IMG/VR virus record: IMGVR_UViG_3300029288_000077
Coordinates: 119,766-183,765 of that record
Source: a virus
Taxonomy: Duplodnaviria; Caudoviricetes
Strand: one strand, 5' to 3'
Length of the DNA: 64,000 bases
The first letter of the stretch is position 1, and the number at the start of each line of letters is the position of its first letter. The notes below the pieces were generated by a model that was not told the DNA's origin, ran no database searches, and saw only the letters and a list, made by a program, of their open reading frames with translations. Positions 25,921 to 42,229 of the stretch are shown piece by piece. Both the position numbers and the translations under genes were made by a program.

Positions 25921-26065
25921 GGCCACCAGTGACACTGGTGAGAGGTGACCTCTTACAGGTACAGGTTGCCTAGGTCACCAGGTAACCCGCATCTGGTGCA
26001 GGTAGAGGTCGCCAGGTCACCTATGTGAGGTTGCCTAGGTGCCTAGGTACGGTCGCCAGGCGACC
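25921..26065. repeat. Array of about 10 GGYNRCC heptamers with nested palindromes (iteron-like)
   Basis: Copies at 25921, 25944, 25964, 25973, 25981, 26007, 26015, 26029, 26051 and 26059, mostly preceded by A. Confidence 0.85.
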
Positions 26066-26186
26066 TAAAACTTTTTTAAAAACAAAGATCGAAGAAAGAT
26101 CCGGAAAAAATGAAGGAAAAAGGGGTTTGGGGGAGAGGGGAACAACGATGCATGACGCATAAACCCAAGACTAAACTGTATACTGT

Positions 26187-26233
26187 GTGGCGGCATTCGC
26201 CGCCACGTGGTGACTGCGAAGCGCAGTCACCAC
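26187..26233. other. Two abutting perfect GC-rich hairpins
   Basis: GTGGCGGC-ATTC-GCCGCCAC (26187-26206) and GTGGTGACTGCG-AAG-CGCAGTCACCAC (26207-26233). Confidence 0.9.
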
Positions 26234-26303
26234 CCCCACATCTATAGAAATACTTTACCCTGAAAGGAAAGGAAGTACGGCACTCGAAACATGGAGGAAT
26301 AAC

Positions 26304-27284
26304 TTGCCTAATAAAGAAGAAAAACAACACATAGTAATTTATACACAGGGTGGATCGGGAGATATAATTGCTTCTACTCCTATGTTGCGTTGCATACATA
26401 GGGATTACCCAAATCAAGAGTTGGTTGTGGTAACTACATATCCTGTTATCCTAAAAGATAATCCTAATATCAGCAAGGTATTTCCATTCAATGAGGGAAT
26501 GAATGTTTATTCAGAATATAAAGATACCGCTGTTATGTTCAAGAAGAGATTTGCTTATGATTATTTTAGAGACGAACACAGAGCAAAAAGCAAGAACATA
26601 CTTGATTTTATTTGCAATGTGTATGATACTAAGTGGGATGGTGATCCTCCTGAGGTGTTTTTAACAAAACATGAGCGTGAGTTTGGTCAATACTTTATGA
26701 GTCAATTCAAGAAACCTGTAATACTGATACATGCGTTTGGTGCTGTCCCCTCTGAGGGTCAATCTAGAAAAATACACGCTCACAAAGATATGCGGATGGA
26801 TTTGATCTCTGAATTGGTTAGAAAATACAGTAAGCATTTTGAGTTCGTGCAAATTGGATTAGCTGGTGAACAGCTTGTTGAGGGTGCGTTTGATGCTCTT
26901 GGTATGCAGATGCGTGAGACTTTTGCGATCATTGACCTGTGTAAAACGTTCGTGTTCATAGAAAGTTTGTTTGCACATTATTCTGCGTGCATTAACAAGA
27001 CTGGTGTAGTGTTGTTCAATAATACTGATCCAAGATTCTTTGGACATCCACACAACATTAATATCAATGCACCGCAAAGCTTGTGTGATGAGTGGCCTTG
27101 CAATCGACCGGTTGGTGCTTTGTTGGATCTGGAGCCTGGATACTTAAACCCCAAAACCCGTGAACGCAATTTGTGGACATGTAAGAGAGATATAGTATGC
27201 AATCAGATACCGTATGCTACTCTTGAGTCTGCGTTTCTGCGCGCTATAGAAAAGAACACCGAAAAAGACGAAAAGAGTGCATAG
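26304..27284 (+). CDS. GT9 (ADP-heptose:LPS heptosyltransferase-like) glycosyltransferase
   Basis: GGSGDII.STP...NPNIS.V; 'FVFIESLFAH'; TTG start after GGAGGA. Confidence 0.8.
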   Translation: MPNKEEKQHIVIYTQGGSGDIIASTPMLRCIHRDYPNQELVVVTTYPVILKDNPNISKVFPFNEGMNVYSEYKDTAVMFKKRFAYDYFRDEHRAKSKNILDFICNVYDTKWDGDPPEVFLTKHEREFGQYFMSQFKKPVILIHAFGAVPSEGQSRKIHAHKDMRMDLISELVRKYSKHFEFVQIGLAGEQLVEGAFDALGMQMRETFAIIDLCKTFVFIESLFAHYSACINKTGVVLFNNTDPRFFGHPHNININAPQSLCDEWPCNRPVGALLDLEPGYLNPKTRERNLWTCKRDIVCNQIPYATLESAFLRAIEKNTEKDEKSA

Positions 27285-28367
27285 ATGGAAAATCGCCCAT
27301 ATCAATTCCTGACTGAAGACAAGAATGAAGCCAAGACAAAGATCATAGCCTACAAGGCTGATAGTGGTGCGTGTTGGTTTTATAGGTTGCATAGTCCGTT
27401 GAGTGCTCTTACTAGAAACAACAAGTCATTTCTGATTTCTGTATATCCGTATATGCATGAATCTCACATGCTAAAGAAAAACACCGATTTGGCTATATTT
27501 CAACGTCAATATTCTGCACAGGTGTTGCAATATGCCATGCAGATGAAGAAAGATGGCATAAAAATAGTTTATGAAACTGACGATGACCTGTTTCATATAC
27601 CTGATTGGAATCCAGCACATCACACCTACGCAAAAAGACAAACTCAAGACGTGATCAGAAAGTTTTTGGAAATAGCAGACGCTGTTTTTACCACCACACA
27701 GCCGCTAGCTGAGGAACTTTTGCAGTATAATGATAATGTGTACATACTTCCAAATTCAATAGATTTTAGACTGATTACCGAGAGTCCGCACAATTCAATC
27801 AAGAAAGTGGCGGTGTGGCAAGGATCCGCTACTCATAAAAATGATTTAAAATTGATTACTCCAGCCATAAAGAGGCTGTGTTCTGAAGATAAGTACATGG
27901 TGAAACTGATGTATGCTAAAATAGAGGGAGCTTATTCTGTTCCGCCTGTTGAACTGCAGGCATTTTACCAGATGATGAGCCAATTGGACGGTACTGTTGG
28001 TTTTGCACCAATAATAGCAAACAAATTTAACGTGTGTAAATCTAATCTAAAGTTTCTTGAATATGCTGCACAAAAGATAATTACCGTAGCATCTGATGTA
28101 CACCCATATTCAACTTCTATAGTTGATGGTGAAACCGGATTTATAGTAAAGGATAATAAGGAATGGTACGACAAGGCAGTGTGTGTTCTGGAGAACGAGG
28201 AACTTATTGAAAAAGTTACCTCTGCCGCATATGAGTACGTGAAGGATAATTTTGATATAGATGATACATATAAGTATTGGGAGACAGCAATAACAGAAGT
28301 TCTGGAAGGAAAAGACGCAGATAACCAGGAGAATGAAGATGACAGGTCTGTCGCTAGTATTGATTAA
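27285..28367 (+). CDS. GT-B (GT4-like) glycosyltransferase
   Basis: 'FYRLHSP', 'FQR', 'YETDDDL' and 'KSNLKFLEY...TVASDV.PY...G.TG'. Confidence 0.85.
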   Translation: MENRPYQFLTEDKNEAKTKIIAYKADSGACWFYRLHSPLSALTRNNKSFLISVYPYMHESHMLKKNTDLAIFQRQYSAQVLQYAMQMKKDGIKIVYETDDDLFHIPDWNPAHHTYAKRQTQDVIRKFLEIADAVFTTTQPLAEELLQYNDNVYILPNSIDFRLITESPHNSIKKVAVWQGSATHKNDLKLITPAIKRLCSEDKYMVKLMYAKIEGAYSVPPVELQAFYQMMSQLDGTVGFAPIIANKFNVCKSNLKFLEYAAQKIITVASDVHPYSTSIVDGETGFIVKDNKEWYDKAVCVLENEELIEKVTSAAYEYVKDNFDIDDTYKYWETAITEVLEGKDADNQENEDDRSVASID

Positions 28368-28821
28368 TGGAAGCTTTGTTGGCGCGGTGTCTGATAAAGA
28401 ATTTTCAGAGTGGGTTGATGGTACAAAAAATCGCCTGTTGATGTATTTTCCGAAAATGCTGCAAATACAGCCTGTTATGGAAAATGAACAGATGGCTGGC
28501 TTTAAGACCATGGTTTTGCCCATGCATTTGTTGAAGGTTAAACAGGAATTTTTGATGGTGAGTCCTACTACAATAGAAGTGTTGTGTGTAATAAATAAAG
28601 ATCAAGATGAGGCGGAACAAGATATAAACAACTTATCACAAAAAGACATACGCGATTTTATTTTAGAACATCTGCATGCATTCAGTACCATGCCGCAAAT
28701 TGAGCTGTTTGGCTTGTGGACCAACGCTATTAACATGTGGCGCGCTGAGTTGGCTGGTATAGCTGTTCCGTCTGGTCCTGTTCCGAGACCTAGGAACATT
28801 TCAAGATTGAAATTGAAGTAG
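28333..28821 (+). CDS. Hypothetical protein
   Basis: 162-aa ORF in a coupled operon. Confidence 0.65.
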   Translation: MKMTGLSLVLINGSFVGAVSDKEFSEWVDGTKNRLLMYFPKMLQIQPVMENEQMAGFKTMVLPMHLLKVKQEFLMVSPTTIEVLCVINKDQDEAEQDINNLSQKDIRDFILEHLHAFSTMPQIELFGLWTNAINMWRAELAGIAVPSGPVPRPRNISRLKLK

Positions 28822-28828
28822 GTGGTGC

Positions 28829-29164
28829 ATGGCAGACAAAAGACAGCTTTGTAAAATCGGAAAAAATGCAGAAATTGTGTTTGATGGTAAGTGCTTTACT
28901 CTTAGATTTCTAGAAGGAGGATCTGTGGTTGATGAGTTTAATTTTAGCTGGATAGCAGATGCATTGCGTGCGTATGTATTGTACTCATTAAACAAGGTTG
29001 CTAGAATAGAGCCTTCTGTGTCGGGGCTTGTAAAGAAAGTGGATAATTTATCGGCATTAATTAGTTCTGTGGGGTGTGTTCTTGGGGATGAATGGAGGAA
29101 ATTTGTTAACGATCCTGTAGAAAAAGTAATAGAAGAAGAGGATACTAGAAATGAAGACGAATGA
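28829..29164 (+). CDS. Hypothetical protein
   Basis: 111-aa ORF with SD. Confidence 0.65.
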   Translation: MADKRQLCKIGKNAEIVFDGKCFTLRFLEGGSVVDEFNFSWIADALRAYVLYSLNKVARIEPSVSGLVKKVDNLSALISSVGCVLGDEWRKFVNDPVEKVIEEEDTRNEDE

Positions 29165-29732
29165 GAATGTAATAATACTTACTAAAGCGTATATAATAGA
29201 ACTATTTGATAGCATGTTTTTTAGTAATAGGATAAATTGGGGAGGGATAGACTTATTCAACACCCTTCCGATTATAAATTCAGAAAAAAACGGTGAAGAA
29301 GGTATTGAACAAAGATTTGCTTTTATGGTGCATGAATCTGCTCCAATGGCACTCAAACTACTAATCACTGCGTCTGTAGGAAAAGAAATACACAAGGTGT
29401 GCTACAGAGTAAAAACGGTCAATAAACAAATTGAAATAGATGACAGAAAAATGAAAATTCCGGTGGCTATGATTGACTGTTCTATAGCAAACTTGTCACT
29501 GGGGTTCAAAGATCCATCAGCACTCATTTTTAATATAAATACGGAGACTTCTGATGCTGCGGAAGGTTCTGTTGTGTGGAATCTAATGAAGTTTATAACA
29601 AATTCCTACATGGTGTCTCATGAATTAGATAATGATGACAAAAATTTGTTCGATGAAGTGGTATTAGACTTGAAGAGTCTGCCTCCTGTACCTGGTGATG
29701 AACACTACAGACAAGTGTACGCCATATCATGA
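29151..29732 (+). CDS. Hypothetical protein
   Basis: 193-aa ORF overlapping its neighbours. Confidence 0.65.
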   Translation: MKTNENVIILTKAYIIELFDSMFFSNRINWGGIDLFNTLPIINSEKNGEEGIEQRFAFMVHESAPMALKLLITASVGKEIHKVCYRVKTVNKQIEIDDRKMKIPVAMIDCSIANLSLGFKDPSALIFNINTETSDAAEGSVVWNLMKFITNSYMVSHELDNDDKNLFDEVVLDLKSLPPVPGDEHYRQVYAIS

Positions 29733-30271
29733 AGAGGTTGTTTGTAGATCCAGGCAGTGTGTCTGGGTATGCTTGTTATAACAACGGCAATTTGTGTGAA
29801 CACGGTTATTGTAATTGTAAGGTGTATGATAAGGAGTGCGTTGACTACGTAAAATCAATCATTGAACTTACAAAACCAGAAGAAGTATATATTGAGCGAC
29901 AGTTCCTGCCTGAACCAAAAAAAGAGAACGGAAAAGTAACAGGCAGAACACTTGGTATATTCACACTGGTTTTGAATAGGTCTGTGTGGGATGTGTTATC
30001 TACACTTATTATTGGCAGTGATGCTGTTAAAGAAGTGAATGTTGCTAAGTGGCAATCACATTTTGGGCTAAAAGTGGACAAATCTATTAAGAGCAAATAC
30101 TCCAGAAAGAAGAAGCTGAAGCAAGATATGATTTGCAAGGTGAAAGAGCTGTTTGGTATTGAAGTGTGTGAAAATGAGGCAGATGCTGTACTAATAGGTA
30201 AGTATATAACCGACAAAGAGAGCAGCGATGTCACTGGACCTGACAGCACTAATAGCGGTAAAGGATCGTGA
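29729..30271 (+). CDS. RuvC-like Holliday junction resolvase
   Basis: LFVDPG, VYIERQF, 'KWQ' and NEADAVLIG catalytic pattern. Confidence 0.8.
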   Translation: MKRLFVDPGSVSGYACYNNGNLCEHGYCNCKVYDKECVDYVKSIIELTKPEEVYIERQFLPEPKKENGKVTGRTLGIFTLVLNRSVWDVLSTLIIGSDAVKEVNVAKWQSHFGLKVDKSIKSKYSRKKKLKQDMICKVKELFGIEVCENEADAVLIGKYITDKESSDVTGPDSTNSGKGS

Positions 30272-30962
30272 GTTCAACATAAATTACTGTTTGTCGTCGA
30301 TAGATAAGTGCAATCCGAAACCGAAGTGTATTTTAGTTGATTTTGGTAGCAAGATACCTTTGTCCGGGAGATTCAACTATGACTGGTTGCAAGTGATTAG
30401 GGTTACTCGCAATACTAGCCTGTTTCATAAAGCAAGAGCACTGAACATAGGACTGAAGAAAACCACTACCAAATATGTGTGTGCTACGGACGCTGATCAG
30501 GTCTTTAACCCATCATTTTTTGGTGTGGTGCATGATTTGCTCATGAAGAACCCAAAAGCGTTCGTGATGTGTTATACATATTTTTTGTATAAAGCTCCAA
30601 ATTTTAAGCCGCATGAACTCAATTATCACGCGCTACTAAAACAAGTGCGTGCATCAAAATCCAAATTGAGTGGAGATGGATGTTGTAATGGTATAAACAA
30701 AGATTTTTTGATGAGTGTGCATGGATGGGATGAAAGATACATTGGGTATGGTGCAGAAGACAGTGATATGAATCTTCGTGCGCGGTTACGCGGGTATAAC
30801 ATAGTATGGGCACATAAATATACTAATATGATTCATTTACCTCATAGCAGAAGTACGCCATATCACTCAGCTTCATATTTATCTGCAAATAGAAAGATGT
30901 ATTATACAAGAAGAAGAATCAAAGACGTGGTTGTAAATCCCAGGAATTGGGGTGAGATTTAG
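30228..30962 (+). CDS. GT2/GT7C-type glycosyltransferase
   Basis: 'LVDFGS', 'KARALNIG', TDAD (DxD) and 'GWDERYIGYGAEDSD'. Confidence 0.9.
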   Translation: MSLDLTALIAVKDREFNINYCLSSIDKCNPKPKCILVDFGSKIPLSGRFNYDWLQVIRVTRNTSLFHKARALNIGLKKTTTKYVCATDADQVFNPSFFGVVHDLLMKNPKAFVMCYTYFLYKAPNFKPHELNYHALLKQVRASKSKLSGDGCCNGINKDFLMSVHGWDERYIGYGAEDSDMNLRARLRGYNIVWAHKYTNMIHLPHSRSTPYHSASYLSANRKMYYTRRRIKDVVVNPRNWGEI

Positions 30963-31897
30963 TGTCAAGACCAAAGATCATAACGATACGAAAATGGGGC
31001 ACCGCAAACTGTATGCGTGAGTTTGGGTTTGATGTGTATTCTGTTCCAGTTAATAATTTGAAGAGCGCGCGTTTGTTTATGATGGCAGTTAAGGAGATTC
31101 AACCTGATATATTCTTTTTCTCTAAAGATGAGAGTGTGTCGCCCAGTGTATTTAAGAGGGTGAGAACTTTGTCACCCAATACAGCTTGTGTGATGCTGTA
31201 CTGGGATCAACGTGGGCGTGTTCCTGGGATAATCAAGGCCAGGAGAGGGTGCATAGACTCCATTATTATAAATAATGCTGATCCAAAACAATTTTTGATG
31301 TATAAAAAATTTGGAATAAAAAATGTGTATACGCTGTATGATTCTGCAAACAGTAAGATATTCAATCCTATTAATAAAAAGAGAACATATGATTTAATAT
31401 TTGGTGGCTCGAACTACAAAAATTTGTTTCCGCTGTCTAATATGAGATTGTGTTTATTGGGAGAATTGAAAAGGAAATTTAATATGATAGTCTATGGTAA
31501 TGGTTGGCCATTTCAATCTATGCCTATAGTAAGAAAAAATAAATATTGTGAGGCTATTCAGAATGCAAAAATTAGTTTAGGTATAAATCATTATGATGTA
31601 TATAAATATTATGAGGAAAGATTTATTGAGTGCATGGCAGCAGGAAGAATGCATTTAACATATTATATACCTGGAATGGAAAACGATTTTGGAAATAGAA
31701 AACATGTGGTGTGGTTCAAAAGTGTTCCTGAGTGTGTTGATCTTGTGCGTTATTATTTGAAATACCCAAATAAGAGGGAAGAAATAGGGAGGGATGGGAG
31801 GAAAAGGATTTTTGAGCTTTTTGATATCAAAAAGAACACACAGAGATTATCAAATATACTTAAGGATTCATATACAAGAAAGCAGGCGGCAACGTGA
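30962..31897 (+). CDS. CgeB-like GT-B glycosyltransferase
   Basis: 'AKISLGIN...ERFIECMAAG...YYLK.P..REEIG..G'. Confidence 0.85.
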   Translation: MSRPKIITIRKWGTANCMREFGFDVYSVPVNNLKSARLFMMAVKEIQPDIFFFSKDESVSPSVFKRVRTLSPNTACVMLYWDQRGRVPGIIKARRGCIDSIIINNADPKQFLMYKKFGIKNVYTLYDSANSKIFNPINKKRTYDLIFGGSNYKNLFPLSNMRLCLLGELKRKFNMIVYGNGWPFQSMPIVRKNKYCEAIQNAKISLGINHYDVYKYYEERFIECMAAGRMHLTYYIPGMENDFGNRKHVVWFKSVPECVDLVRYYLKYPNKREEIGRDGRKRIFELFDIKKNTQRLSNILKDSYTRKQAAT

Positions 31898-32946
31898 AAG
31901 TTGGTGTGATATTGGATGATTTTTCCTATTATAACTTCTCTCCTGAATTTCAGGCCATTAAAATAAGTAGTAAAAATTTTATGAATGACATTAAAAATAT
32001 AGATATGTTGTTTGTTGAATCTGCCTGGGCCGGAAACAACAATCAATGGAGACTAGTTATAGGTCCTAACAATAGGTGGGTTGATGGTGCTATTAATTCT
32101 ATCATAAATGTGTGTAAAAAAAGAGGAATTCCTACAGTTTTTTGGAATAAAGAAGATCCCGTACACTTTAAGAATTTTTTGTGGTTAGCAAAAAAGTTTG
32201 ATTTTGTTTTCACTACAGATGATGGTTCCATTAATAAATATAGAAGTGCTTTGAAACACAACAGAATCTATGCGCTTCCTTTTGCCGCCCAACCAATGTA
32301 TCAATACCCTTCTGTGTTGTCTGGAAGGAACAAGAACCCGTGTTTTGCTGGTACATACTGGAATAAACAGCATTTGCATCGGAAAAAACAAATGGAGTGC
32401 GTTCTGAAACCATGCATTCCATATGGTTTGCATATTTATGATAGAAAGAAAGTTGGTGGTGCCGGTAATAGTTTTCCAGGCCCATATGATAAGTGTGTGG
32501 TGGGTGGAGTTCCGTTTTTGGAGTTAATGAATAAATATAGAAATTATAGGTTTTTTGTAAATGTTAACATAGTTACGAATTCAAATACGATGTTTTCTAG
32601 AAGAGTTTTTGAAATAGCATCCTGTGGTACGCCTATTTTGAGTTATCCTTCTTTGGGAATGAAAAGGGTTTTCGGTGATTCCATTGTGTTTTCTGATTCA
32701 GAGGAAAAATCGCGTGAATATATAAGAAACATACTGTCTAATGATGCATATTGGGAGGAGTTGTCTATTAAAGGGATAAAGGTTGTATATGGTAAAAATA
32801 CCTATTCGCACAGATTTGATAGGATATGTAGGATTGTCGGTGTTCGTACTCCGGATGTTGTTACTAGAAGGATCGAGTTATACGATAGGGTTATGAAATG
32901 CAACTCTGTGTCTGAGGCATCATTGTTGATGCGTGAGATACTATGA
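31894..32946 (+). CDS. CgeB-like GT-B glycosyltransferase
   Basis: 'FVESAW', 'FWNKEDP', 'LPFAAQP' and 'FSRRVFEI.SCGTP'. Confidence 0.85.
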   Translation: MKVGVILDDFSYYNFSPEFQAIKISSKNFMNDIKNIDMLFVESAWAGNNNQWRLVIGPNNRWVDGAINSIINVCKKRGIPTVFWNKEDPVHFKNFLWLAKKFDFVFTTDDGSINKYRSALKHNRIYALPFAAQPMYQYPSVLSGRNKNPCFAGTYWNKQHLHRKKQMECVLKPCIPYGLHIYDRKKVGGAGNSFPGPYDKCVVGGVPFLELMNKYRNYRFFVNVNIVTNSNTMFSRRVFEIASCGTPILSYPSLGMKRVFGDSIVFSDSEEKSREYIRNILSNDAYWEELSIKGIKVVYGKNTYSHRFDRICRIVGVRTPDVVTRRIELYDRVMKCNSVSEASLLMREIL

Positions 32947-33632
32947 CAGATTCAAACATTTTATCCGCAATAAAGAAAAATACAATGCTAGGTAGCATTA
33001 CGTTTAATAATATCATAAAACAAGTAAAATACGTAATAAAGAATGGTGTGGAAGGGGACTATGTGGAGTGTGGTGTTTGGAAAGGTGGGGGTGCTGCTAT
33101 TGCAGCAAAAACCTTTTTAGATAATAAATCTGTCAGATGCATGCACTTGTTTGATGTGTTCGATGATCCTCCTATGCCCACCGTACATGACGATGAAAAA
33201 CTTGTGAAAAAACTTGGAGGAATAAGGACAGGTGAATGTAAATCTATAAAAGGATGTTATGCAAGAATGGGTAAATCCGGTCCAGGGACAGAAAATGGTG
33301 CAAGGAATTTAATAATTAATAAAGTTGGGTATTGTGAAAAGAACGTGCAATTCTATAAAGGTTGGTTTCAGGACACTGTTCCTGCAGCAAAAGAGGGCAT
33401 CAATAAAATTTCTGTGTTTGTGTTAGATTGTGGGTATTATGATGCTAGTGTTGTTTGTTTAGAAAATTTATATGAAAAGCTGGAAGGAAAAGGTATTATG
33501 ATTGTTGATAATTATTTTACGTATTCTGGGTGCAGGAAGGCAGTGGATGAATACTTAAATAAAATTGGCGAAAAACCAAACATGGTTCGAGTTAATAAAG
33601 ACTGCGTGTGTTGGCACAGGCACAGGATATGA
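32943..33632 (+). CDS. TylF/MycF/NovP-type sugar O-methyltransferase
   Basis: 'GDYVECGVWKGG', 'LFDVF' and 'KGWFQDT'. Confidence 0.9.
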   Translation: MTDSNILSAIKKNTMLGSITFNNIIKQVKYVIKNGVEGDYVECGVWKGGGAAIAAKTFLDNKSVRCMHLFDVFDDPPMPTVHDDEKLVKKLGGIRTGECKSIKGCYARMGKSGPGTENGARNLIINKVGYCEKNVQFYKGWFQDTVPAAKEGINKISVFVLDCGYYDASVVCLENLYEKLEGKGIMIVDNYFTYSGCRKAVDEYLNKIGEKPNMVRVNKDCVCWHRHRI

Positions 33633-35413
33633 AAATATTACACATTGGGGGATCTCATTCCATACACTTATCAGATTTGGTGTATGAATTAGATAAGTTG
33701 GGTCACAAACAATGCGTATTTAGTTACAGGAAAAAGAGCACACTAAAAAATTCAATACCGGTTTATTATTATCCATATGATTCTTTCTATCCTGATGTAG
33801 TTGACGCAAACAAATCAGCGTGTGTTAGGGGCATGCTGAAGAGAATTGTTGAAAAAGAACAGCCAGATTTAGTCCATGTGCATTTTATTATCGTTGGGTG
33901 TGTACCGTTGTTGCTTTTAGATTCTATAAAGAAACTGCCGGTAATTGTATCGCCGTGGAACCTTAGGTTTATGGGCAGCGTGGGAATATTAGGCAAAAGG
34001 ATAAGACGTTCATTTGAAATATGCGACAGAGTGTTGTTTGGATCAGATGTAATATTTAGATGTTTTCAAAAAGACTATCAAATTCACGAAAATAGGTATT
34101 CGTTCTACAAACTTCCCCTTGATTTAGACTGGTACATGCATTCTGATGTAGACTGTTCATGTCCTAAAATACTCTCTGCCAGGGTTATGCAACCAACAAA
34201 CCACCAAGATTTGCTATTATATGCAATTAAGAAGATGAGAGAGGGTGGTGGGGATGTGCACGCAACATTTATTGTTGGTCAAAGCCGAGAGCAAGGTATC
34301 AATTACTTCAATAAAATGAAGGCACTCTCACGCGGACTTAATATTGAAAAACTGTGTACTTTTATAGATCGCAGTTTATCTCAAGATGAGTTTAAAAAGC
34401 TTATTGCAAAACACAATATTGTGTATTCTGTGTCTGAAGACTCTGGTTATTCACAAACAACAATACAATCATTGTGTGCCGGTGTGGTCACTTTAGTAAG
34501 AGAAAATGTACTAGAAAAAAATCTTGCTGATAACAACAAGAATTTACTTCCAGTTAAACTAGACGTAGCTGGGGTGTATAATGGGCTAAAAAAAGCAGTT
34601 GATGGTCTGCAGAATCTGTGCATACCTGTCGGTGAACGAAACAAAGCATTGTTGTTGTATGATAAATCTGTAACTATGCCGACATTGAACTGGATTTATC
34701 TGAATATCAACAAATGTAAAATTTGTGGTGATGTTGTGAGAATAGAAGAAATTTCTGGGCATGATTTGTGTATATGTAATGCGTGTGGTGTTAGGTATCA
34801 TCGTAGTACCCCCTCTGGTAGATTTTTGGATAATTACTACAAAGGTCTTTCGAAGAGATTTGGTAGTATTCAGAAGGCCATAAACAGAAACCACAATCAG
34901 AACAAAAAATCTTTTGAGGTGTATGTACGCGAGGTTAAAGAGAACGTGCCTGTTGGATCAAGAATTTTAGACGTAGGATGTTATGATGGACTATTAGTAA
35001 AGATGTTGGTTGATGCCGGTTATTTGGCAGAAGGAATAGAGATAAATAGTGAATTGGTGAGGTGCAGCAAAAAATATGGAGTCAATGTAACGAATTGCGA
35101 CATAAGCAATTTTAATAATAAATTCCAATACGATACGGTTATATCTCATGCAGTTTTGGAACACCAGCCAGATCCATTCATATTTATTGATAAAATAAAA
35201 AGTGTGCTGTCCGAGGGAGGCACAGTTATTGTGTCAGTTCCTGACTCTTGTAGAAATTTTTCAGTTTCTTATCCTGCACATTTGTGGCACTATACTGCCC
35301 ATTCATTAAAAATTCTTTTCAACAAGTGTGATATGGTTTGTGAAGTGCACCCGAGACAGACATCCAAATCATTGGTGTGTGTTTCTAAAGTGAGAAGGTG
35401 CTGTGTTGAGTAA
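33629..35413 (+). CDS. GT4-like glycosyltransferase fused to a Zn-ribbon and class I SAM methyltransferase
   Basis: MKILHIGG...PDLVHVH; CKIC...CNAC; ILDVGCYDG...VLEH..DP. Confidence 0.85.
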   Translation: MKILHIGGSHSIHLSDLVYELDKLGHKQCVFSYRKKSTLKNSIPVYYYPYDSFYPDVVDANKSACVRGMLKRIVEKEQPDLVHVHFIIVGCVPLLLLDSIKKLPVIVSPWNLRFMGSVGILGKRIRRSFEICDRVLFGSDVIFRCFQKDYQIHENRYSFYKLPLDLDWYMHSDVDCSCPKILSARVMQPTNHQDLLLYAIKKMREGGGDVHATFIVGQSREQGINYFNKMKALSRGLNIEKLCTFIDRSLSQDEFKKLIAKHNIVYSVSEDSGYSQTTIQSLCAGVVTLVRENVLEKNLADNNKNLLPVKLDVAGVYNGLKKAVDGLQNLCIPVGERNKALLLYDKSVTMPTLNWIYLNINKCKICGDVVRIEEISGHDLCICNACGVRYHRSTPSGRFLDNYYKGLSKRFGSIQKAINRNHNQNKKSFEVYVREVKENVPVGSRILDVGCYDGLLVKMLVDAGYLAEGIEINSELVRCSKKYGVNVTNCDISNFNNKFQYDTVISHAVLEHQPDPFIFIDKIKSVLSEGGTVIVSVPDSCRNFSVSYPAHLWHYTAHSLKILFNKCDMVCEVHPRQTSKSLVCVSKVRRCCVE

Positions 35414-36272
35414 TTTTCCAAAGACCATAGTAATCGATAACTGTGGTTTTTGTAATTTGAACTGTGTGATGTGTGATCACAAAAACATACTCAGATATAG
35501 AGACAAAAGGAGCATGGATATAAGTTTATATCGTAAAATAATAAAGGAGATTTCTGTTGAAAATAAAAATGCTAGAGTTTGGGAAATATTTTTTGGCGAG
35601 CCGTGTCTATGCAAGGATATGAGCAGTAGAATCAAAGAAGCGAAAGAAGCTGGTCTTAATGATGTTGTGTTGAACTCAAATGGAGTATTGCTCACAGATG
35701 GAAAATCGCGTTCATACATAGAATCTGGGCTTGATTGTATGTATGTTGGTCTGGATGCAATAACTGAAAGTACATATGATCTAATGCGTGTTGGTGGAGA
35801 TTTCAAGAAAGTGGTGAAAAACATACTTTTGTATAGAGACAATTTGCAGAAATTTGGTACTACGAAACAAAAGCTGTTTGTGCAGTTTATAGAAGGTAAG
35901 TACAATGCACATGAAAAGAGTGAGTTTGTGGAGCGTTGGTACAATCAAGGTGTGGAAGTGAAGGTCCGAAGTATGCTGGGGTGGGCCGGATTACTGGGTT
36001 CGTCACCAATTGCTGATTTTTCAAACAGGAAACCATGTTATTGGATTCAAGATACTATGGTAGTATGTTCAAATGGTTGTGTGCCCTTGTGTGCGTGTGA
36101 TGTACATTGTAGGGTTGAATGTGGTAATTTAAATAACAGTACTATGAAAGAAGTTTGGGGCGGAAAATTGAAAACATACAGAGAATATCACATAAATAAT
36201 GAATGGGATAAAATTCCTGATATTTGTAAGTCGTGCACAGACTGGGTTTTTGGTCGTGCGGAGTATGCATGA
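35403..36272 (+). CDS. Radical SAM / SPASM-twitch domain protein
   Basis: CNLNCVMC (CxxxCxxC), FGEP, and C-terminal C...C.CD...GNL...CKSC. Confidence 0.92.
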   Translation: MLSNFPKTIVIDNCGFCNLNCVMCDHKNILRYRDKRSMDISLYRKIIKEISVENKNARVWEIFFGEPCLCKDMSSRIKEAKEAGLNDVVLNSNGVLLTDGKSRSYIESGLDCMYVGLDAITESTYDLMRVGGDFKKVVKNILLYRDNLQKFGTTKQKLFVQFIEGKYNAHEKSEFVERWYNQGVEVKVRSMLGWAGLLGSSPIADFSNRKPCYWIQDTMVVCSNGCVPLCACDVHCRVECGNLNNSTMKEVWGGKLKTYREYHINNEWDKIPDICKSCTDWVFGRAEYA

Positions 36273-37348
36273 AGGTATTGCATATTGGCGGCAGCACTGC
36301 CGTGCATGTTATAGATGAACTAAGGTTCTTAGATAAGAGAGGTGTACATCAGTATTTGCTGAGTTACAATTTGGAAAATAGAATGCCTGAGTATTTGAAG
36401 AAGAAAATACCTACTTATTATTTATTTGATTTTAAAAAAGAGTTTGGTCCAGGTCATGTCAAGCCCGGAAAACAAAAAAAGCTTATGGTATTTGCAAAAA
36501 GAATTATGAATAAAATTAGACCAGATATCATTCATGTGCACTGTCCGTCTTATTGTGCGGTAGCTGCTTTGTTGTGTTATAGAATGAGAAAAACACCTAT
36601 GCTGATTACTTTGTGGGGTGTTCCTGACATATCTATAAACTCAGTTAATAAAAAGAGGATCAAAAAACTGACTGAATGCTGTACCTACATGAATGCGAAA
36701 AACGTGAATTTTCTGAGGTATTTCTGCAAATTTTATGGTATGAAAAGAGGCAAAGGAATAATATCTGGTTATCCGATAAGACTTAGCGGTTATGTTGGGC
36801 ATGTACCAGATTATTCTCTTCCTAGGGTATACATACCACGGTCTTATTTCCAGGACATGATTGTTTATGCGATTAGAGATGTGTTGAAAGCAGGAAGAGA
36901 CTTTAGAGTTACTTTACATGTCCCGTCAAAAACACGGAACAAGATACTTTCGTTGATTCATAAGCTTGGTATAGAGGATAAATTCGATTATGTATATAAA
37001 ATGCTTCCTCAAGAAGCATTCATTGAAAATATGAAAAAACATAATATATTAATATCTATAAGTTCCGATCCTGGTACATCTGCAACTACTGTTCAAGGGG
37101 CGTTTAGTGGGATGATAGTACTTTCACACCACTCTCCGTACTCTCATGGTATACTAGATGATAATGTTAATGTTATTAAATGTGCAAAAACAGTGAAGTC
37201 CATCAGTAAAAAACTGAGATACGCCATTGACAACTTAGGTGTGTTGGGGCCTAAATTTCATAAAAATAATAAAAAATTGATAAAATTTGACGCCGAGTGC
37301 TCCATAGATGCTATAATGAATACATATAAGAAGATGGTTGGCGGGTGA
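36269..37348 (+). CDS. GT4-like glycosyltransferase, paralogue of the 33629 N-terminal domain
   Basis: MKVLHIGGS...PDIIHVH...KKHNI..S.S.D.G.S.TT.Q. Confidence 0.8.
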   Translation: MKVLHIGGSTAVHVIDELRFLDKRGVHQYLLSYNLENRMPEYLKKKIPTYYLFDFKKEFGPGHVKPGKQKKLMVFAKRIMNKIRPDIIHVHCPSYCAVAALLCYRMRKTPMLITLWGVPDISINSVNKKRIKKLTECCTYMNAKNVNFLRYFCKFYGMKRGKGIISGYPIRLSGYVGHVPDYSLPRVYIPRSYFQDMIVYAIRDVLKAGRDFRVTLHVPSKTRNKILSLIHKLGIEDKFDYVYKMLPQEAFIENMKKHNILISISSDPGTSATTVQGAFSGMIVLSHHSPYSHGILDDNVNVIKCAKTVKSISKKLRYAIDNLGVLGPKFHKNNKKLIKFDAECSIDAIMNTYKKMVGG

Positions 37349-37351
37349 CTA

Positions 37352-38032
37352 ATGGTGGTTGGCGTTCTGCAGCCCAGCTACTTACCGTGGTTGGGGTATT
37401 TTGATCAAATAGATCAATCTAATATATTCATATTCTATGATACAGTTCAATATGATAAAAATGGGTGGCGAAACAGAAATAAAATAAAAACAAAAAATGG
37501 AATACAGTGGCTTACTGTTCCCATCACTAAAAAAGACGGTTTGCTAAAAGATGTTGAAATAGTTTACGAGTCAGACTGGGTTAAAAAGCACCTAGAGTCA
37601 ATAAAACAAACCTATGGCAAATATCGATTCTTTGAAGAAGTATATGAGATTATTAGTAATAGGTTGTTGCTGAAATATGGTAATTTAAGTATGCTGTGCT
37701 GCGATTTGATTGTTGACATTTGCAGATATATGGACATGGATAACATCATGTTCATGAAAGCATCTGATCTGCCTGAATTTACCGGTGATGCAAATGAGAG
37801 ACTTGTGAAGATGTTGATGCACGTGAATGGTACAATGTTTATAGAGGGTGCTTCTGGCATTAACTATATTAATGATAAAATGTTTGCTAGGAATGGCATA
37901 GAAGTTAAATTTCAGAACTATGAGTGTGTTAAATATGATCTTACAGTCAATGAAAATTTGTCGGTGGTAGATGCATTATTTAGATTCGGAAAAGACACGA
38001 TAAACGTGGTACAAAAAGGAAGAAAATCATGA
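37352..38032 (+). CDS. WbqC-like protein (putative glycyl transferase)
   Basis: 'QPSYLPWLGYF', 'DTVQY...WRNRN' and 'WLTVP'. Confidence 0.92.
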   Translation: MVVGVLQPSYLPWLGYFDQIDQSNIFIFYDTVQYDKNGWRNRNKIKTKNGIQWLTVPITKKDGLLKDVEIVYESDWVKKHLESIKQTYGKYRFFEEVYEIISNRLLLKYGNLSMLCCDLIVDICRYMDMDNIMFMKASDLPEFTGDANERLVKMLMHVNGTMFIEGASGINYINDKMFARNGIEVKFQNYECVKYDLTVNENLSVVDALFRFGKDTINVVQKGRKS

Positions 38033-39060
38033 AAATACTGGTAACAGGTGGGGCTGGGTTTATTGGATCAGCATTTTGTCATTATATGAAAAATAAATAT
38101 GGAAAGGAAGTCGAATTAGTTGTATTAGATGCTCTTACTTATGCTGGTAGTATAGAAAATCTGCCAGTTCATTATTCGCAAATCAATGAGGTTGAAGGGT
38201 TTTCGTTTTGGTATGGTAATATTACCAACAGTCAATTAGTGAATGAACTTGTATCACAAGTAGATGTGGTGGTGGGGTTTGCCGCAGAAACCCACGTTTC
38301 ACGTTCCATATATGACAATCAATTGTTTACTGTTACAGATGTATTAGGTACTCAATGCATAGCCAATGCCGTTTGCAAACACAAAAAGTCCATTAAAAGA
38401 TTCATACACGTGTCTACTTCTGAGGTGTACGGAACTGCAGAAGCTGAAAGCATGTCAGAGGATCACCCTTTGAACCCAGCCAGTCCTTATGCTGCAGCTA
38501 AAGCAGGTGCTGATAGACTGGTGTATTCATATTGGAGAACATACGGCATTCCGGCCACAATAATTAGACCGTTTAACAATTATGGCCCAAGACAGCATCT
38601 AGAAAAACTTATTCCAAGATTCATAACGAACATGATCATGGATGAACCATTAAGAATACATGGCGACGGAAGTGCTTCCAGAGACTTTGTGCACGCCGAC
38701 GATACGTGTCGTGCTATTGATTTGTTGTTAAATATTGATTCAGATTCCATAGACGGTAAAGTGTACAATGTGGGATCTGGTGTTTCTAGATCCATACTTG
38801 ATATTGCAAAAGACATATCCTCTTTATTTGGTAAAGAGGCGAAACTGGAGAAAGTTGGTGATAGACCGGGACAAGTTGTTAGACATACGGCAGAATGTCA
38901 TAAGATTGCAAGTCTGGGGTGGATTCCGCGAGTGGATTGGATGGATGGGCTATCACAAACTATAGAATGGTACAAAAACAATAGAGACAGATGGGAAAAA
39001 CAAATATGGATGCGATCAGTTCCTATAGTAACGGCATCTGGGAAGAAGGAGTGGCACTGA
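38029..39060 (+). CDS. rmlB: dTDP-glucose 4,6-dehydratase-like SDR
   Basis: VTGGAGFIG, DALTYAG, FAAETHV, VSTSEVYG, YAAAK and NNYGP; has STSE where canonical RmlB has STDE. Confidence 0.85.
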   Translation: MKILVTGGAGFIGSAFCHYMKNKYGKEVELVVLDALTYAGSIENLPVHYSQINEVEGFSFWYGNITNSQLVNELVSQVDVVVGFAAETHVSRSIYDNQLFTVTDVLGTQCIANAVCKHKKSIKRFIHVSTSEVYGTAEAESMSEDHPLNPASPYAAAKAGADRLVYSYWRTYGIPATIIRPFNNYGPRQHLEKLIPRFITNMIMDEPLRIHGDGSASRDFVHADDTCRAIDLLLNIDSDSIDGKVYNVGSGVSRSILDIAKDISSLFGKEAKLEKVGDRPGQVVRHTAECHKIASLGWIPRVDWMDGLSQTIEWYKNNRDRWEKQIWMRSVPIVTASGKKEWH

Positions 39061-39593
39061 TACGGTTGGTGCTTTCCGATCTTGAGCGCTACAAAGATTC
39101 ATATAAGGCCAGAGGTTCGAAATTTTCCAAAAAAGCGTATTTGGAAAGTTTTGTGTTTAAACCTGGATTCCAGGCAGTGTTGTTATACAGAGTTTCTCAT
39201 TTTTTGTATAAGGTTGGTATGAATTATGCAGCCTGGGCGGTTTCTAGAATCAATCAAATTTTGACGTCTGCAGAGATTGAATTCAACGCAGAGTTCGGCC
39301 CTGGGTTGTTTATTGCCCATCCCTCCGGTATTGTTGTTGGCAGAGGGTCGAAAGTCGGCAAGAATTGTACAATGTTCCAACAAGTTACATTAGGTGTTAG
39401 GAGTTGGGAGGATATGCGATATCCTGCTATAGGGGATGGTGCTGTGCTTTTTTCTGGATCTAAAGTACTTGGTGGTATAAGAATTGGTAATAATGTTACA
39501 GTGGGTGCCAATGCCGTTGTGTTTGACTGTGCTGGTAATGACATGTTATGTGTTGGTAACCAAACCACAAAACATAAGAGAATGAAAACATGA
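39051..39593 (+). CDS. Hexapeptide-repeat (CysE-like) acetyltransferase
   Basis: 'A.FGPGLFIAHP.GIVVG', 'QQVTLG', 'P.IGD' and 'IGNNVTVGANAVV'; GTG start at 39051 inferred. Confidence 0.85.
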   Translation: MALIRLVLSDLERYKDSYKARGSKFSKKAYLESFVFKPGFQAVLLYRVSHFLYKVGMNYAAWAVSRINQILTSAEIEFNAEFGPGLFIAHPSGIVVGRGSKVGKNCTMFQQVTLGVRSWEDMRYPAIGDGAVLFSGSKVLGGIRIGNNVTVGANAVVFDCAGNDMLCVGNQTTKHKRMKT

Positions 39594-40723
39594 AGGTTGA
39601 ATTCTTCAAACATTCTGTTGGTGATGAGGAAATAGAGTCTATAGCTCAAGCAATAAGAGGCAAGTTTCTTACTAATGGGCCAATTGTAGAAGAGTTTGAA
39701 TGTGCCCTTGCTGAGTACATGGGCATGAAGTACGCTGTGGCCGTTTCTAGTTGTACTGCTGCCTTGCATTTGTCCCTGTTGGCGGTTGGTGTTGAGCCAT
39801 GTTCGGAAGTGATAGTTCCAGCAATGACATTTGTGGCAACCGCTTTGGCAGTCATGCACGCTGGTGCTTCTCCTGTGATTGTTGACGTGTTGAAAAAAGA
39901 CGGCAACGTAGATCCAGAAAAAGTTTATCAACGAATAAGAGAAAAAACTAAGGCTGTGGTGCCAGTGCGTTTATATGGATCGTGTTGCGATGAAGAAGCA
40001 GAAATAGGAAGAATGTGTAGCAGAGATCACGTGCCTGTGATTGTTGATGCTGCACATGCTTTGGAAATGACCAAAGGTCGTGTTGTAAGCAACTTTGATG
40101 GTGCATGCCTAAGTTTCTATGCCACTAAGAGCATAACGTGTGGTGATGGTGGCGCTTTTGTTACAGACAATGAGCATTTATATGAAAAAGTGAAACTGCT
40201 GAGAACGCATGGTATGAGTGCTGATGCCTCCGCCAGGTATCACAATAAGTACACTCCGTGGGATCTTGTAGCGCATGGCTGGAAATATAATATGACTGAC
40301 ATACAGGCGGCCATGCTGTTGCCGCAGTTGAAAAGAGTGGATACCAATTGGCAAAGCAGAAAAGAAGCTTACGATAGATACGTTGTTCAGCTAAAAGATG
40401 TGGAAGAGATTGTACTTCCCGAGATCCCCAAAGACAGAAACAGGCACTCGCATCATTTGTTTACTGTGTGGACGAAAGACGAAAACACTCGAAACGCGCT
40501 AATAAGGTTTTTGAATACCTGCGGTGTGGGCGTAGCTGTTAATTACAAATCTATTAATCTTACTTCGTACTTGTCAAAAAGACTTGGTGCTGGTCGAGGT
40601 ATGTGTCCTGTTTCTGAGCGCATAGGTGATGTGACTATATCTCTTCCATTTTATGCTGGTATACCATATTCGGACATAGATTATGTGTGTTCATGCATTA
40701 AGAGATTCTATAGTAAGACATGA
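39590..40723 (+). CDS. DegT/DnrJ/EryC1 sugar aminotransferase
   Basis: 'SSCTAALHL', 'DAAHA' and 'SFYATKSIT.GDGG' (PLP lysine). Confidence 0.95.
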   Translation: MKVEFFKHSVGDEEIESIAQAIRGKFLTNGPIVEEFECALAEYMGMKYAVAVSSCTAALHLSLLAVGVEPCSEVIVPAMTFVATALAVMHAGASPVIVDVLKKDGNVDPEKVYQRIREKTKAVVPVRLYGSCCDEEAEIGRMCSRDHVPVIVDAAHALEMTKGRVVSNFDGACLSFYATKSITCGDGGAFVTDNEHLYEKVKLLRTHGMSADASARYHNKYTPWDLVAHGWKYNMTDIQAAMLLPQLKRVDTNWQSRKEAYDRYVVQLKDVEEIVLPEIPKDRNRHSHHLFTVWTKDENTRNALIRFLNTCGVGVAVNYKSINLTSYLSKRLGAGRGMCPVSERIGDVTISLPFYAGIPYSDIDYVCSCIKRFYSKT

Positions 40724-41445
40724 ACAAGGCAGCGGTGTTGATATTGACGCACAACAGGGTAGGTGTGTCTTCAAAGTATGTTCCAAATATAGTAGACAAG
40801 GCACGCAATGCAGATATTTTGATTTGGGACAATGGTTCTACTGATGGTACTTTTGAATGGTTGTTCAATTATTACTTGATGGAAAAAAGAATTACTAAGA
40901 TTTTTGGTTCTGACAAGAATTATGGTATGGAAGCAGTAAACTTCATGGTTAATGAGTCTGACAGTGAATACATCATAAAAGTTGATGATGATGTAACTAT
41001 ACCAGACAATTTTGTTAATAGACTGGTTGGTGCCTATGAAAAACTTGGTGATAGGAAAGTTTTGTTTATGTCCTGGGACATGAATTGGGGCAAAAGCACA
41101 TTTGCTACAAGACATGGGATAAGAATGTTCGGAGGAAATAGCGGGAAATTTAAAATGGTTGGCAAAAACGAAAAGGTGTACGTGTGTAATGATCCACACA
41201 AATTCATGGCGAATGGTGTGTGCAGGCTGTCAAGAAAACGCGATTTTGTGAAAATAGGCGGTCATCCTCCAGGTGTGATTTATGGTGTGGATGCTATAGT
41301 TTCAAGCATAGCTGGCTCTTGTGGATATAAAATTGCTTATTATTCACCCAGTGATTTGATAGTGCATCACCAAAATGATGATCCTGTGTATAGAAGGTTC
41401 AAGGACAAAGAACTAAGGAGAGTTAATTCTCCAAAGAACGTGTGA
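40720..41445 (+). CDS. GT2 glycosyltransferase
   Basis: 'ILTHNR', 'WDNGSTDGT' and 'KVDDD'. Confidence 0.88.
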   Translation: MNKAAVLILTHNRVGVSSKYVPNIVDKARNADILIWDNGSTDGTFEWLFNYYLMEKRITKIFGSDKNYGMEAVNFMVNESDSEYIIKVDDDVTIPDNFVNRLVGAYEKLGDRKVLFMSWDMNWGKSTFATRHGIRMFGGNSGKFKMVGKNEKVYVCNDPHKFMANGVCRLSRKRDFVKIGGHPPGVIYGVDAIVSSIAGSCGYKIAYYSPSDLIVHHQNDDPVYRRFKDKELRRVNSPKNV

Positions 41446-41452
41446 GCGTTGT

Positions 41453-42229
41453 ATGGATCGTACAGTGTTGAGCATAGTAATTCCGTGTTTGGATGCTGCA
41501 GACCGTACTATTAGCTGTGTAAAAAGTATAGTCAAATATACGTACACACCGTATGAGATTTTGTTGATTGATAATGGTTCTACTAATAAAAACAAAGAAA
41601 AGATGTGTAGCTATTTTGAATCTACAGGTAAGATTGTAAAATTTGTGAAAATGAACAAAAACGTTGGATTTACAAAGGCAGTGAACATAGGTATCAGAGA
41701 ATCTGAAGGTGACTATGTTGCTATGATGCACAATGATGTTGAAGTATCGTTTCGTTGGGACAAAAAACTGATTAATGGTCTGCTGGATTACAAAGTTGGT
41801 GCTGTTGGCCCCATAACACAACTACCGGTGTCAATGCAGAGCCCAGAAAACTTGCACAGATTCTATAAAGCAAATGTCCCAAAATTCATGCACTCCAATG
41901 AATTTTATGGGAAAAAACTTGATCAGTTGTTGTCAAAGACGTACATTGATATGTGCAAGAAGCCGTTGTCACTGTTTTGTGTGGTTACTAGAAAGAATGT
42001 GCTTGAACATGTTGGGTTATTGGATGAAGATTTCGAACATGATACAGGTGCTGAATGCGAATTCAACCATCGACTGCTTGTTAATGGATATAAATGCTTA
42101 GTTAGTGCAGGCACTTTTGTGTTTCATGCATCAGGTATAACAAAAAAGGCTCTGAAACTAAATCAAGATAGCATAAGAAGAAAAAGTCTTGAGATTTTGA
42201 CAAAGAAGAAAGTGCCGCTACGAGAATGA
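41453..42229 (+). CDS. GT2 glycosyltransferase (rhamnosyltransferase-like)
   Basis: 'SIVIP', 'IDNGST', 'NVGFTKAVN.G' and 'VGLLDEDF'. Confidence 0.9.
   Translation: MDRTVLSIVIPCLDAADRTISCVKSIVKYTYTPYEILLIDNGSTNKNKEKMCSYFESTGKIVKFVKMNKNVGFTKAVNIGIRESEGDYVAMMHNDVEVSFRWDKKLINGLLDYKVGAVGPITQLPVSMQSPENLHRFYKANVPKFMHSNEFYGKKLDQLLSKTYIDMCKKPLSLFCVVTRKNVLEHVGLLDEDFEHDTGAECEFNHRLLVNGYKCLVSAGTFVFHASGITKKALKLNQDSIRRKSLEILTKKKVPLRE

Follow-up and report, generated by a model that had tools for sequence, protein, structure and literature searches.

The DNA considered here, called the window in what follows, is a stretch of 64,000 nucleotides that makes up the final 64 kb of C2, a contig of 183,765 bp from an uncultured tailed phage (IMG/VR record IMGVR_UViG_3300029288_000077, positions 119,766 to 183,765), and the element of interest within it is an island of 19 tightly packed open reading frames (ORFs) on the + strand at positions 26304-42229, most of them overlapping by a few bases. 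The reading favoured, to which one might give a probability of about one-half, is that the island glycosylates phage proteins inside the infected cell, adding to them a complex, methylated amino-sugar glycan. On this proposal an RmlB-like dehydratase and a DegT-family aminotransferase would turn host nucleoside diphosphate (NDP)-glucose into an NDP-4-amino-4,6-dideoxyhexose, which a WbqC-family protein and a CysE-like acetyltransferase would probably tailor further; nine soluble glycosyltransferases (GTs) would assemble a heteroglycan directly on protein, most likely on virion or virion-associated phage proteins; and a TylF-type O-methyltransferase, a GT4-fused methyltransferase and a BtrN-like radical S-adenosylmethionine (SAM) enzyme would decorate it, the whole pathway being cytoplasmic with no export step. 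What the sequence shows is the inventory of enzymes, the solubility of the encoded proteins, the deep conservation of the island within a phage clade and a complete phage genome with neither export nor DNA-handle genes; the sugar, the protein acceptor and the biological role are inferred, candidates for the last being shielding, stability and control of adsorption.

Enzymes of the island

The nine glycosyltransferases comprise one of GT9 fold, three that are GT4-like, three of family GT2 and two that are CgeB-like. Family searches found all of the gene types named in an initial annotation of this DNA, at the + strand positions given there, and its count of nine transferases stands once the GT9 fold of ORF1 has been established by profile and structure comparison (see below). 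The GT2 enzymes, which are the only ones on C2, are ORF7 (30228-30962; PF00535 at 3.7e-10, with a Glyco_transf_7C-like end matching PF02709 at 9.5e-8), ORF18 (40720-41445; PF00535 at 2.9e-13) and ORF19 (41453-42229; PF00535 at 2.7e-23). The GT4-like enzymes are ORF2 (27285-28367), a GT-B protein matched by phrog_7162 at 2.3e-57 and by Pfam below its cut-off; ORF11 (33608-35413, alternative start 33629), in which an N-terminal GT4 domain (PF13439 at 2.1e-8, residues 19-163) is fused to a C-terminal class I SAM methyltransferase (PF13489 at 2.3e-13, residues 441-568); and ORF13 (36233-37348, alternative start 36269; PF13477 at 1.6e-9 and PF13439 at 8.6e-9).

The two CgeB-like enzymes are ORF8 (30962-31897; PF13524 at 6.7e-19) and ORF9 (31894-32946; PF13524 at 2.2e-15 and PF12996 at 6e-6, corresponding to a DUF3880/YkvP_N domain plus Glyco_trans_1_2). 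Their place in the CgeB/YkvP family is clear from PF13524 scores of 68.7 and 57.3 bits respectively against a cut-off of 25, and for ORF9 also from PF12996 (26.9 bits, cut-off 25.2); ORF9 has 869 homologues, of which those with names are mostly CgeB/YkvP proteins of Bacillota at about 40% identity. CgeB itself, the founder of the family, is reported to glycosylate Thr112 of CgeA, a protein of the spore crust, within the mother cell (PMC13577073), a setting that may be regarded as directly analogous to that of virions assembling in a cell that is due to lyse.

The remaining transferase, ORF1 (26304-27284; 326 residues, with a TTG start after GGAGG), is divergent, having no direct Pfam match above threshold and only a weak match to TIGR02201. 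An exhaustive search nevertheless returned 934 homologues, and Glyco_transf_9 (PF01075) matched 43 of the 77 that were aligned; the resulting profile found GT9 structures (3tov at 4e-10, WaaF at 2e-9), and an AlphaFold2 model with a mean predicted local distance difference test (pLDDT) score of 91.4 matched GT9 in Foldseek at 4e-13, with Z scores (VIA) of 24.2 for 3tov, 21.4 for WaaF, 21.4 for TibC and 19.4 for WaaC, the next fold group reaching 11.6. Judged by profile and model, then, ORF1 may be assigned to the GT9 heptosyltransferase fold. The model is equally close to the protein heptosyltransferase TibC and to the lipopolysaccharide (LPS) enzyme WaaF (Z 21.4 each), and an insertion in its C-lobe carries four cysteines (C261, C266, C293 and C299; window 27084-27200) that are kept in 41-64 of the 77 homologues. 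By analogy this suggests a putative structural metal site like the iron finger of TibC, a Cys4 finger (Cys339/342/358/370) that likewise lies in a C-lobe insertion and helps to bind the beta-helical protein substrate (PMC4358343). TibC also possesses an N-terminal beta-barrel spanning residues 1-97 (PMC4358343), as expected of the bacterial autotransporter heptosyltransferase (BAHT) family of TibC and AAH; ORF1 is without this domain, its first Rossmann strand lying at residue 9 and its alignment beginning at TibC residue 87, and membership of that family could thus be ruled out. Among 50,697 GenBank phage records only four weak matches to ORF1 were found; its nearest homologues outside the clade described below are on phage-like contigs, in one case beside a run of GT genes.

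Turning to the supply of sugar, ORF15 (38029-39060) scores 327.5 bits with TIGR01181, below the equivalog cut-off of 365, and just 73 bits with gmd, so that it reads as an RmlB-like NDP-glucose 4,6-dehydratase, while ORF17 (39590-40723; PF01041 at 6e-103, 345 bits) is a DegT-family nucleotide-sugar 4-aminotransferase whose closest solved relatives are ArnB and perosamine synthetase. Together these two predict the conversion of host NDP-glucose proposed above; no nucleotidyltransferase (NTP_transferase) was found on C2. The hexapeptide acetyltransferase ORF16 (38991-39593, likely start 39006) scores 137.8 bits with NF041874, below the cut-off of 150, and reaches only 1.6e-7 with the NeuD/VioB family, which would make it of CysE/EpsC rather than VioB/PglD type. 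For the WbqC-family protein ORF14 (37352-38032; PF08889 at 4e-61) searches yielded no solved relative, and the literature searched contained no functional study. As regards decoration, the best solved relatives of the TylF-family sugar O-methyltransferase ORF10 (32943-33632; PF05711 at 1.8e-33) are NovP and MycF, whose substrates for methylation are sugars already joined to an acceptor, and that of the radical SAM/SPASM enzyme ORF12 (35403-36272; PF04055 at 2e-16, PF13186 at 1e-4) is BtrN (1.8e-9), a carbohydrate dehydrogenase; ORF12 is probably sugar-modifying too. Nine transferases, for their part, imply a sizeable heteroglycan.

One further ORF of sugar-nucleotide type is found outside the island, some 39 kb upstream (C2:106674-107489, equivalent to L099:13675-14490). 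It resembles UDP-glucose/GDP-mannose dehydrogenases and at 271 residues is truncated, having the N-terminal and central domains and no C-terminal one; Metallophos and Macro-domain ORFs adjoin it, and a dCMP deaminase gene (L099:8051-8575) and a GNAT gene (L099:6731-7192) are nearby.

Weighing the possible acceptors

Any assignment of an acceptor has to begin from the membrane, and for this purpose all 281 ORFs called on C2 were scanned for hydrophobic segments, defined as 19-mers with a Kyte-Doolittle value of at least 1.7. Transmembrane prediction had been proposed with the initial annotation as a check, and no credible transmembrane segment was found in any island protein. No protein on C2 has more than two hydrophobic segments, and hence the 184 kb encode no protein of Wzx, Wzy, ABC-permease or WecA/WbaP type; the statement that the island has no flippase, polymerase, undecaprenyl-phosphate transferase or transmembrane protein accordingly extends beyond the window to the whole phage. 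The components by which a Wzx/Wzy- or ABC-dependent locus is recognised (initiating transferase, flippase or permease, polymerase or ligase) are thus absent from the phage, and the host may supply them. What does not follow is the step, taken in the same annotation, from the absence of membrane genes to a cytoplasmic acceptor, because soluble or peripheral GT2 and GT4 enzymes also serve lipid-linked acceptors, TarP being an example.

This leads directly to the alternative that survives best, though it must still be considered unlikely, namely that the island remodels a host envelope glycan, with soluble phage transferases acting at the cytoplasmic face on a lipid-linked precursor of O-antigen, capsule, teichoic acid or S-layer, and with initiation, flipping and ligation left to host proteins; this could serve to exclude superinfecting phages, or to stop progeny from adsorbing again to debris. 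Surface-polysaccharide pathways, such as those for O-antigen, capsule and teichoic acid, normally use soluble or peripheral enzymes of families GT2, GT4 and GT9, with initiation and export in the hands of host proteins, so that a lack of transmembrane segments is quite compatible with such a role. There are also precedents of a kind: TarP, encoded by a prophage, acts in this way on wall teichoic acid (as cited in bioRxiv 10.1101/2023.12.21.572611), and GT-rich clusters of cyanophages have been read as serving host-surface modification (PMC12801897). Expression together with replication genes would equally suit a host-directed function. On the other side, the phage has no gene for any membrane step in its 184 kb, and the genome with which it was binned contains no close counterparts of the island proteins. 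Neither a tyrosine integrase nor a serine recombinase was found on C2, so that the phage is probably strictly lytic, which argues against serotype conversion of a lysogen. Lastly, a costly island of 16 kb that is held at one locus down to 35-45% identity has more the character of a core phage function than of a host-specific moron.

In favour of a protein acceptor, and so of the glycosylation of phage proteins, one may cite the modelled fold of ORF1, which is as near to TibC as to WaaF, together with its conserved Cys4 insertion, and also the fact that homologues of ORF2 lie directly before the terminase gene in Streptomyces phages, beside genes for a short-chain dehydrogenase/reductase (SDR) and a methyltransferase. 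Several points weigh against it. No acceptor could be identified from sequence, and a scan of the C2 proteome found no mucin-like, Ser/Thr-rich or collagen-like tract in any credible phage protein. The CgeB-like, GT2, GT4 and GT9 families all include enzymes that work on lipid-linked acceptors or polysaccharides, so that family membership leaves the acceptor unfixed, and phage DNA glycosyltransferases likewise derive from LPS- and teichoic-acid-like families (bioRxiv 10.1101/2023.12.21.572611). The location is also not what one might wish: the island lies outside the structural module and heads the replication operon, at the start of a long + strand array between a minus-strand block of early type and the replication genes. 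The stop codon of ORF19 runs into the helicase start (a 4-nt overlap, 42226-42229, as first noted in the initial annotation), no recognisable terminator separates the island from the replication genes, and a promoter and terminator scan of 24800-44500 gave counts no higher than in shuffled sequence; the island is probably co-expressed with the replication genes and not with the late genes. Finally, it would seem that the host of the phage cannot be assigned from the Patescibacteria bin in which the contig was found (see below).

A more specific proposal, which is decidedly less likely, is that ORF1 works in the manner of TibC on the phage's own tailspike-like proteins of beta-helix or carbohydrate-binding kind, the CgeB-like, GT2 and GT4 enzymes then extending the methylated amino-sugar glycan. 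It is suggested by the Cys4 insertion, by the TibC-level fold match and by the presence of at least two tailspike-like proteins with signal-like N-termini: C2:97272-98951 has a weak Beta_helix match and an N-terminal hydrophobic segment, and C2:102026-104320 has G8 and CBM_4_9 matches, also with an N-terminal hydrophobic segment. Were it true, the phage would be making glycosylated host-recognition or depolymerase gear, something for which no description from a tailed phage is known.

A product that is neither protein nor DNA, such as a glycolipid, a soluble methylated oligosaccharide or a glycosylated small molecule, might be used in host takeover or released at lysis. The solved relatives of the decorating enzymes (NovP and MycF for the TylF-type protein, and BtrN) are natural-product tailoring enzymes, the proteome scan did not turn up an acceptor protein, and ORF3-5 are left unexplained, all of which would be accommodated by such a product. 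It is nonetheless improbable: no aglycone, polyketide, nonribosomal peptide synthetase or lipid-synthesis gene was found in or near the island, nine glycosyltransferases imply a large glycan and not a decorated small molecule, and no phage precedent is known.

The initial annotation had slightly preferred protein to DNA on the ground that no enzyme making a DNA handle was visible, and this too extends to all of C2, where no thymidylate synthase (ThyA) homologue, 2-oxoglutarate oxygenase, C5-methyltransferase or tRNA-guanine transglycosylase (TGT)/DpdA gene was found (searches including PF00303, PF00145 and PF13640), nor any Tet_JBP gene (PF12851), the search for the last having been run without a positive control. 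In every described case of phage DNA glycosylation the sugar goes onto a base that has first been hydroxylated, the enzyme responsible being either a thymidylate-synthase homologue or a TET-type dioxygenase that acts together with a C5-methyltransferase (bioRxiv 10.1101/2023.12.21.572611). Hypermodification of phage DNA with a complex glycan, forming with PurZ-type 2-aminoadenine a layered protection from nucleases, is therefore the least probable of the readings, even though the island is immediately followed by the replication genes and probably shares a transcript with them, phi92-like phages likewise have transferases beside primase and helicase, a PurZ-like gene is present, and phage DNA glycosyltransferases of GT-A and GT-B, LPS- and teichoic-acid-type are able to attach glycans of two or three sugars, heptose among them (bioRxiv 10.1101/2023.12.21.572611): no enzyme was found for a hydroxyl handle of the 5-hydroxymethylcytosine, 5-hydroxymethyluracil or 5-hydroxycytosine (5hoC) kind, known DNA glycans have at most three sugars (PMC13326640), far short of what nine transferases, O-methylation and an amino-sugar pathway would build, and enzymes of TylF and CgeB type have no known DNA precedent. 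As to the layered shielding originally suggested, the PurZ-like gene itself is real (55598-56908), but no functional link between it and the island emerged.

Conservation and genomic setting

Related islands came to light by way of protein homologues of ORF9 and ORF1. Compared by megablast with the 50,697 phage records, the island had no match, tblastn found no match to the CgeB-like genes, ORF9 among them, in the same GenBank collection, and a search of IMG/VR for related loci using the helicase only also returned none. By the protein route the island was found, in the same gene order, in three further uncultured phage lineages (L005/L006, L003/L004 and L096/L097), with identities of 35-65% for the enzyme genes, 42% for the helicase and 23-41% for the small ORFs without a family match. 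As the identities of the enzymes fall in the range of the helicase, the island is as old in this phage lineage as the replication genes, and is no recent pick-up.

The first of these lineages (L005/L006, an 18.5-kb locus from two SRA runs) has counterparts of ORF1-ORF18 at 28-65% identity and, in addition, one more GT4 gene, an intein in the dehydratase and a further GT2 gene that runs off the contig end. The intein-bearing RmlB-like dehydratase (L005:13733-15925) has 730 residues, an Intein_splicing intein splitting its epimerase/dehydratase domain. The L003 lineage (L003/L004/L095, comprising a 138.7-kb ENA contig and a JGI contig) retains ORF1, ORF2, ORF3, ORF5, a GT2 gene, both CgeB-like genes, a GT4 gene, the dehydratase, DegT and two terminal GT2 genes; in it the GT4 and the methyltransferase fused as ORF11 in C2 are two separate genes, and the TylF, radical SAM, ORF13, WbqC and acetyltransferase genes are absent, with a UDP-GlcNAc 2-epimerase-type gene instead. 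Its island ends at a UvsW-like helicase gene, as in C2, the contigs of the other relatives ending before that point. L096, an IMG/VR contig of 128 kb, is a variant with two TylF-like and three GT4 genes. The conserved core thus consists of GT9, GT4, ORF3, ORF5, GT2, the two CgeB-like genes, GT4, RmlB and DegT, with the terminal GT2 genes wherever the contig reaches that far, and the variable part of TylF, radical SAM, WbqC, acetyltransferase and extra GT genes. Constancy of the core alongside varying tailoring genes is what one would expect of an exposed glycan.

The description of the whole 16 kb as a glycosylation island needs some qualification, since alongside the confirmed glycan genes there are four ORFs at 28333-30271 that are not recognisable as such. 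ORF3, ORF4 and ORF5 (162, 111 and 193 residues; 28333-29732) have orthologues in L005, L003 and L096 and no family match: nothing was found for them in Pfam, PHROGs or a phmmer search of the PDB, nor for ORF5 in NCBIfam, and ESM Atlas scores were at most 0.84, the sole lead being a weak GINS-like one for ORF3. A word-based homologue search with ORF5 returned only itself, and its AlphaFold2 model, made from four orthologues, was unusable (pLDDT 41). A role as CgeA-like acceptors or adaptors is one speculative possibility for the three. ORF6 (29729-30271) is a RuvC-like Holliday-junction resolvase (phrog_827 at 9e-8, also phrog_1770). In L003 a gene for an RRXRR-domain nuclease (L003:3288-4409) stands between the ORF2 and ORF3 orthologues, one gene upstream of the resolvase position, and with the RuvC-like gene in C2 this makes it seem that the stretch accepts nuclease genes.

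The two ends of C2 share an identical 127 bp (C2:1-127 and window 63874-64000). Assemblers usually leave such a repeat at the ends of a closed genome, and on that basis it indicates an assembler overlap and a complete phage genome, circular or circularly permuted, with a length of 183,638 bp. Besides the PurZ-like gene C2 carries terminase-like, baseplate, PolA, RecA/UvsX-like, SbcCD-like and ribonucleotide reductase genes. The island is followed by a UvsW-like helicase gene (42226-43695, + strand, with ResIII and UvsW_N matches), which is the first replication gene and serves as a context marker outside the pathway, and then by DnaC-like, DnaB-like, primase-like and PolA genes. The last of these, a family A DNA polymerase (47287-49842), has an N-terminal domain of the uracil-DNA glycosylase (UDG) family, as seen in the Pfam matches of the identical gene in L002. 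Two IS200/IS605-type TnpB genes are present in the window (20774-21913 and 49846-50985; phrog_506 at 1e-116 and 1e-119), one of them abutting the end of the polymerase gene.

The bin is heterogeneous (contigs C1-C10). Its 775-kb contig C1, which bears a 16S gene, has its relatives among Paceibacteria/Patescibacteria, so that a host in this group, the candidate phyla radiation (CPR), was considered. The tetranucleotide correlation of C1 with C2 is 0.62, as against 0.98 between the two halves of C1 and about 0.02 for C1 with C4 and C7; C2 has no DNA in common with the other contigs, and the rest of the bin holds no close homologues of the island proteins. Because the bin is mixed, the signature of C2 is unlike that of C1 and no DNA is shared, the assignment was dropped and the phage is not called a CPR phage. 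Another contig of the bin, C6 (44.6 kb, 38.6% GC), encodes an ORF2 homologue at 25% identity (G000:C6:31122-32198) and two GT2 enzymes, and could represent another phage, or else a mobile element, in the bin.

Comparison with known systems

Taken together, the location on the replication side, the set of enzymes (the CgeB pair, a GT9 enzyme with a Cys4 insertion, the GT4-methyltransferase fusion, the radical SAM enzyme and the WbqC module) and the sheer size would make the island distinctive. If it does build a virion glycan, it would rank among the largest protein-glycosylation pathways in a tailed phage, and would be the first constructed from enzymes of spore-crust (CgeB) and GT9 type with a dedicated supply of amino sugar. 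Glycan coats would then be ancient and conserved throughout an uncultured, myovirus-like clade and not a peculiarity of actinobacteriophages, which would matter for how stable the phages are, how they adsorb and how defence systems or antibodies recognise them, and the variable tailoring genes would mark phage 'serotypes'. All the same, the opinion expressed in the initial annotation that such a system is not recognised from characterised phages was overstated, given the virion glycosylation of mycobacteriophages, a cyanomyovirus with 13 glycosyltransferases and the four-GT block of phi92-like phages.

Virion glycosylation is established for mycobacteriophages (Che8, Corndog and Myrna; Freeman et al. 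2023, as cited in PMC12619734, PMC13313380 and PMC11256854). In common with the actinobacteriophage cassettes, the island has soluble phage glycosyltransferases and methyltransferase functions, lacks export genes and would build its glycan in the cytoplasm. There is also a link through homology, in that tblastn finds ORF2 homologues in 146 phage records, among them those of Streptomyces, Arthrobacter and phi92-like phages; the homologues in Streptomyces and Arthrobacter phages are annotated as glycosyltransferases, and in KimJongPhill the homologue lies directly before the terminase gene, beside the SDR and methyltransferase genes mentioned above. The differences are in scale and setting: nine transferases here compare with two in Maravista, or one together with one methyltransferase in Rhodococcus phages of cluster CB, as given in those citing papers, and the island further brings an amino-sugar pathway, a radical SAM enzyme and members of the CgeB-like and GT9 families. 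Its genes precede those for replication and are not in or beside the structural module (though placement does not strictly define the family), and the island belongs to a large, non-actinobacterial, myovirus-like phage in which no glycosylated C-terminal tract was recognised.

The spore crust of Bacillus subtilis (CgeA/CgeB, CgeD, Sps and Yfn) offers soluble CgeB/YkvP transferases, GT2 enzymes and a 6-deoxyhexose pathway, and there too a protein assembly is decorated inside a cell and freed by lysis with no membrane export (PMC13577073). The island differs in its phage context, in an identity of about 40% that is to CgeB/YkvP-like proteins of Bacillota only, and in that no CgeA-like acceptor was recognised.

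Giant viruses provide a likeness by description, in the capsid glycans of chlorovirus PBCV-1 and the fibril glycans of Mimivirus with their viosamine-type sugars: virus-encoded 4,6-dehydratase, aminotransferase, acetyltransferase, methylation and several glycosyltransferases act there in the cytoplasm on virion proteins. These viruses, of course, infect eukaryotes.

Known DNA glycosylation clusters (the T4 alpha/beta-GT system, the MT+5mYOX+GT clusters and the arabinosyl-5hoC systems of RB69 and DLP3) also use soluble GT-A and GT-B transferases drawn from envelope pathways, some with sugar-nucleotide genes, but every one of them has a handle-making enzyme of the sort that is absent from C2. 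The cyanomyoviruses S-SCSM2R, S-SCSM1 and P-SSM2 resemble the present phage in being lytic and in having many glycosyltransferases (13 in S-SCSM2R) and NDP-sugar epimerase genes, and are unlike it in that their genes are for GT10, 11, 24 and 25, Kds and PgaA, with host-surface or DNA roles proposed (PMC12801897); no homology of the island to these clusters was detected by megablast, nor of ORF9 by tblastn, within the phage collection.

Closest in placement are the phi92-/phAPEC8-like coliphages (Stephanstirmvirinae), in which four consecutive glycosyltransferase genes stand directly before primase/helicase and PolA genes, as in Escherichia phage vB_vPM_PD06 (L093; NC_052653.1, 43764-46940). 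Two of the four are homologous to ORF2, at 25-33% identity. The block has those four transferases only, without sugar-nucleotide, methyltransferase or radical SAM genes, and no function for it was found in the literature searched; with the same placement as the island, it offers a culturable system in which glycosyltransferase blocks linked to replication genes could be studied.

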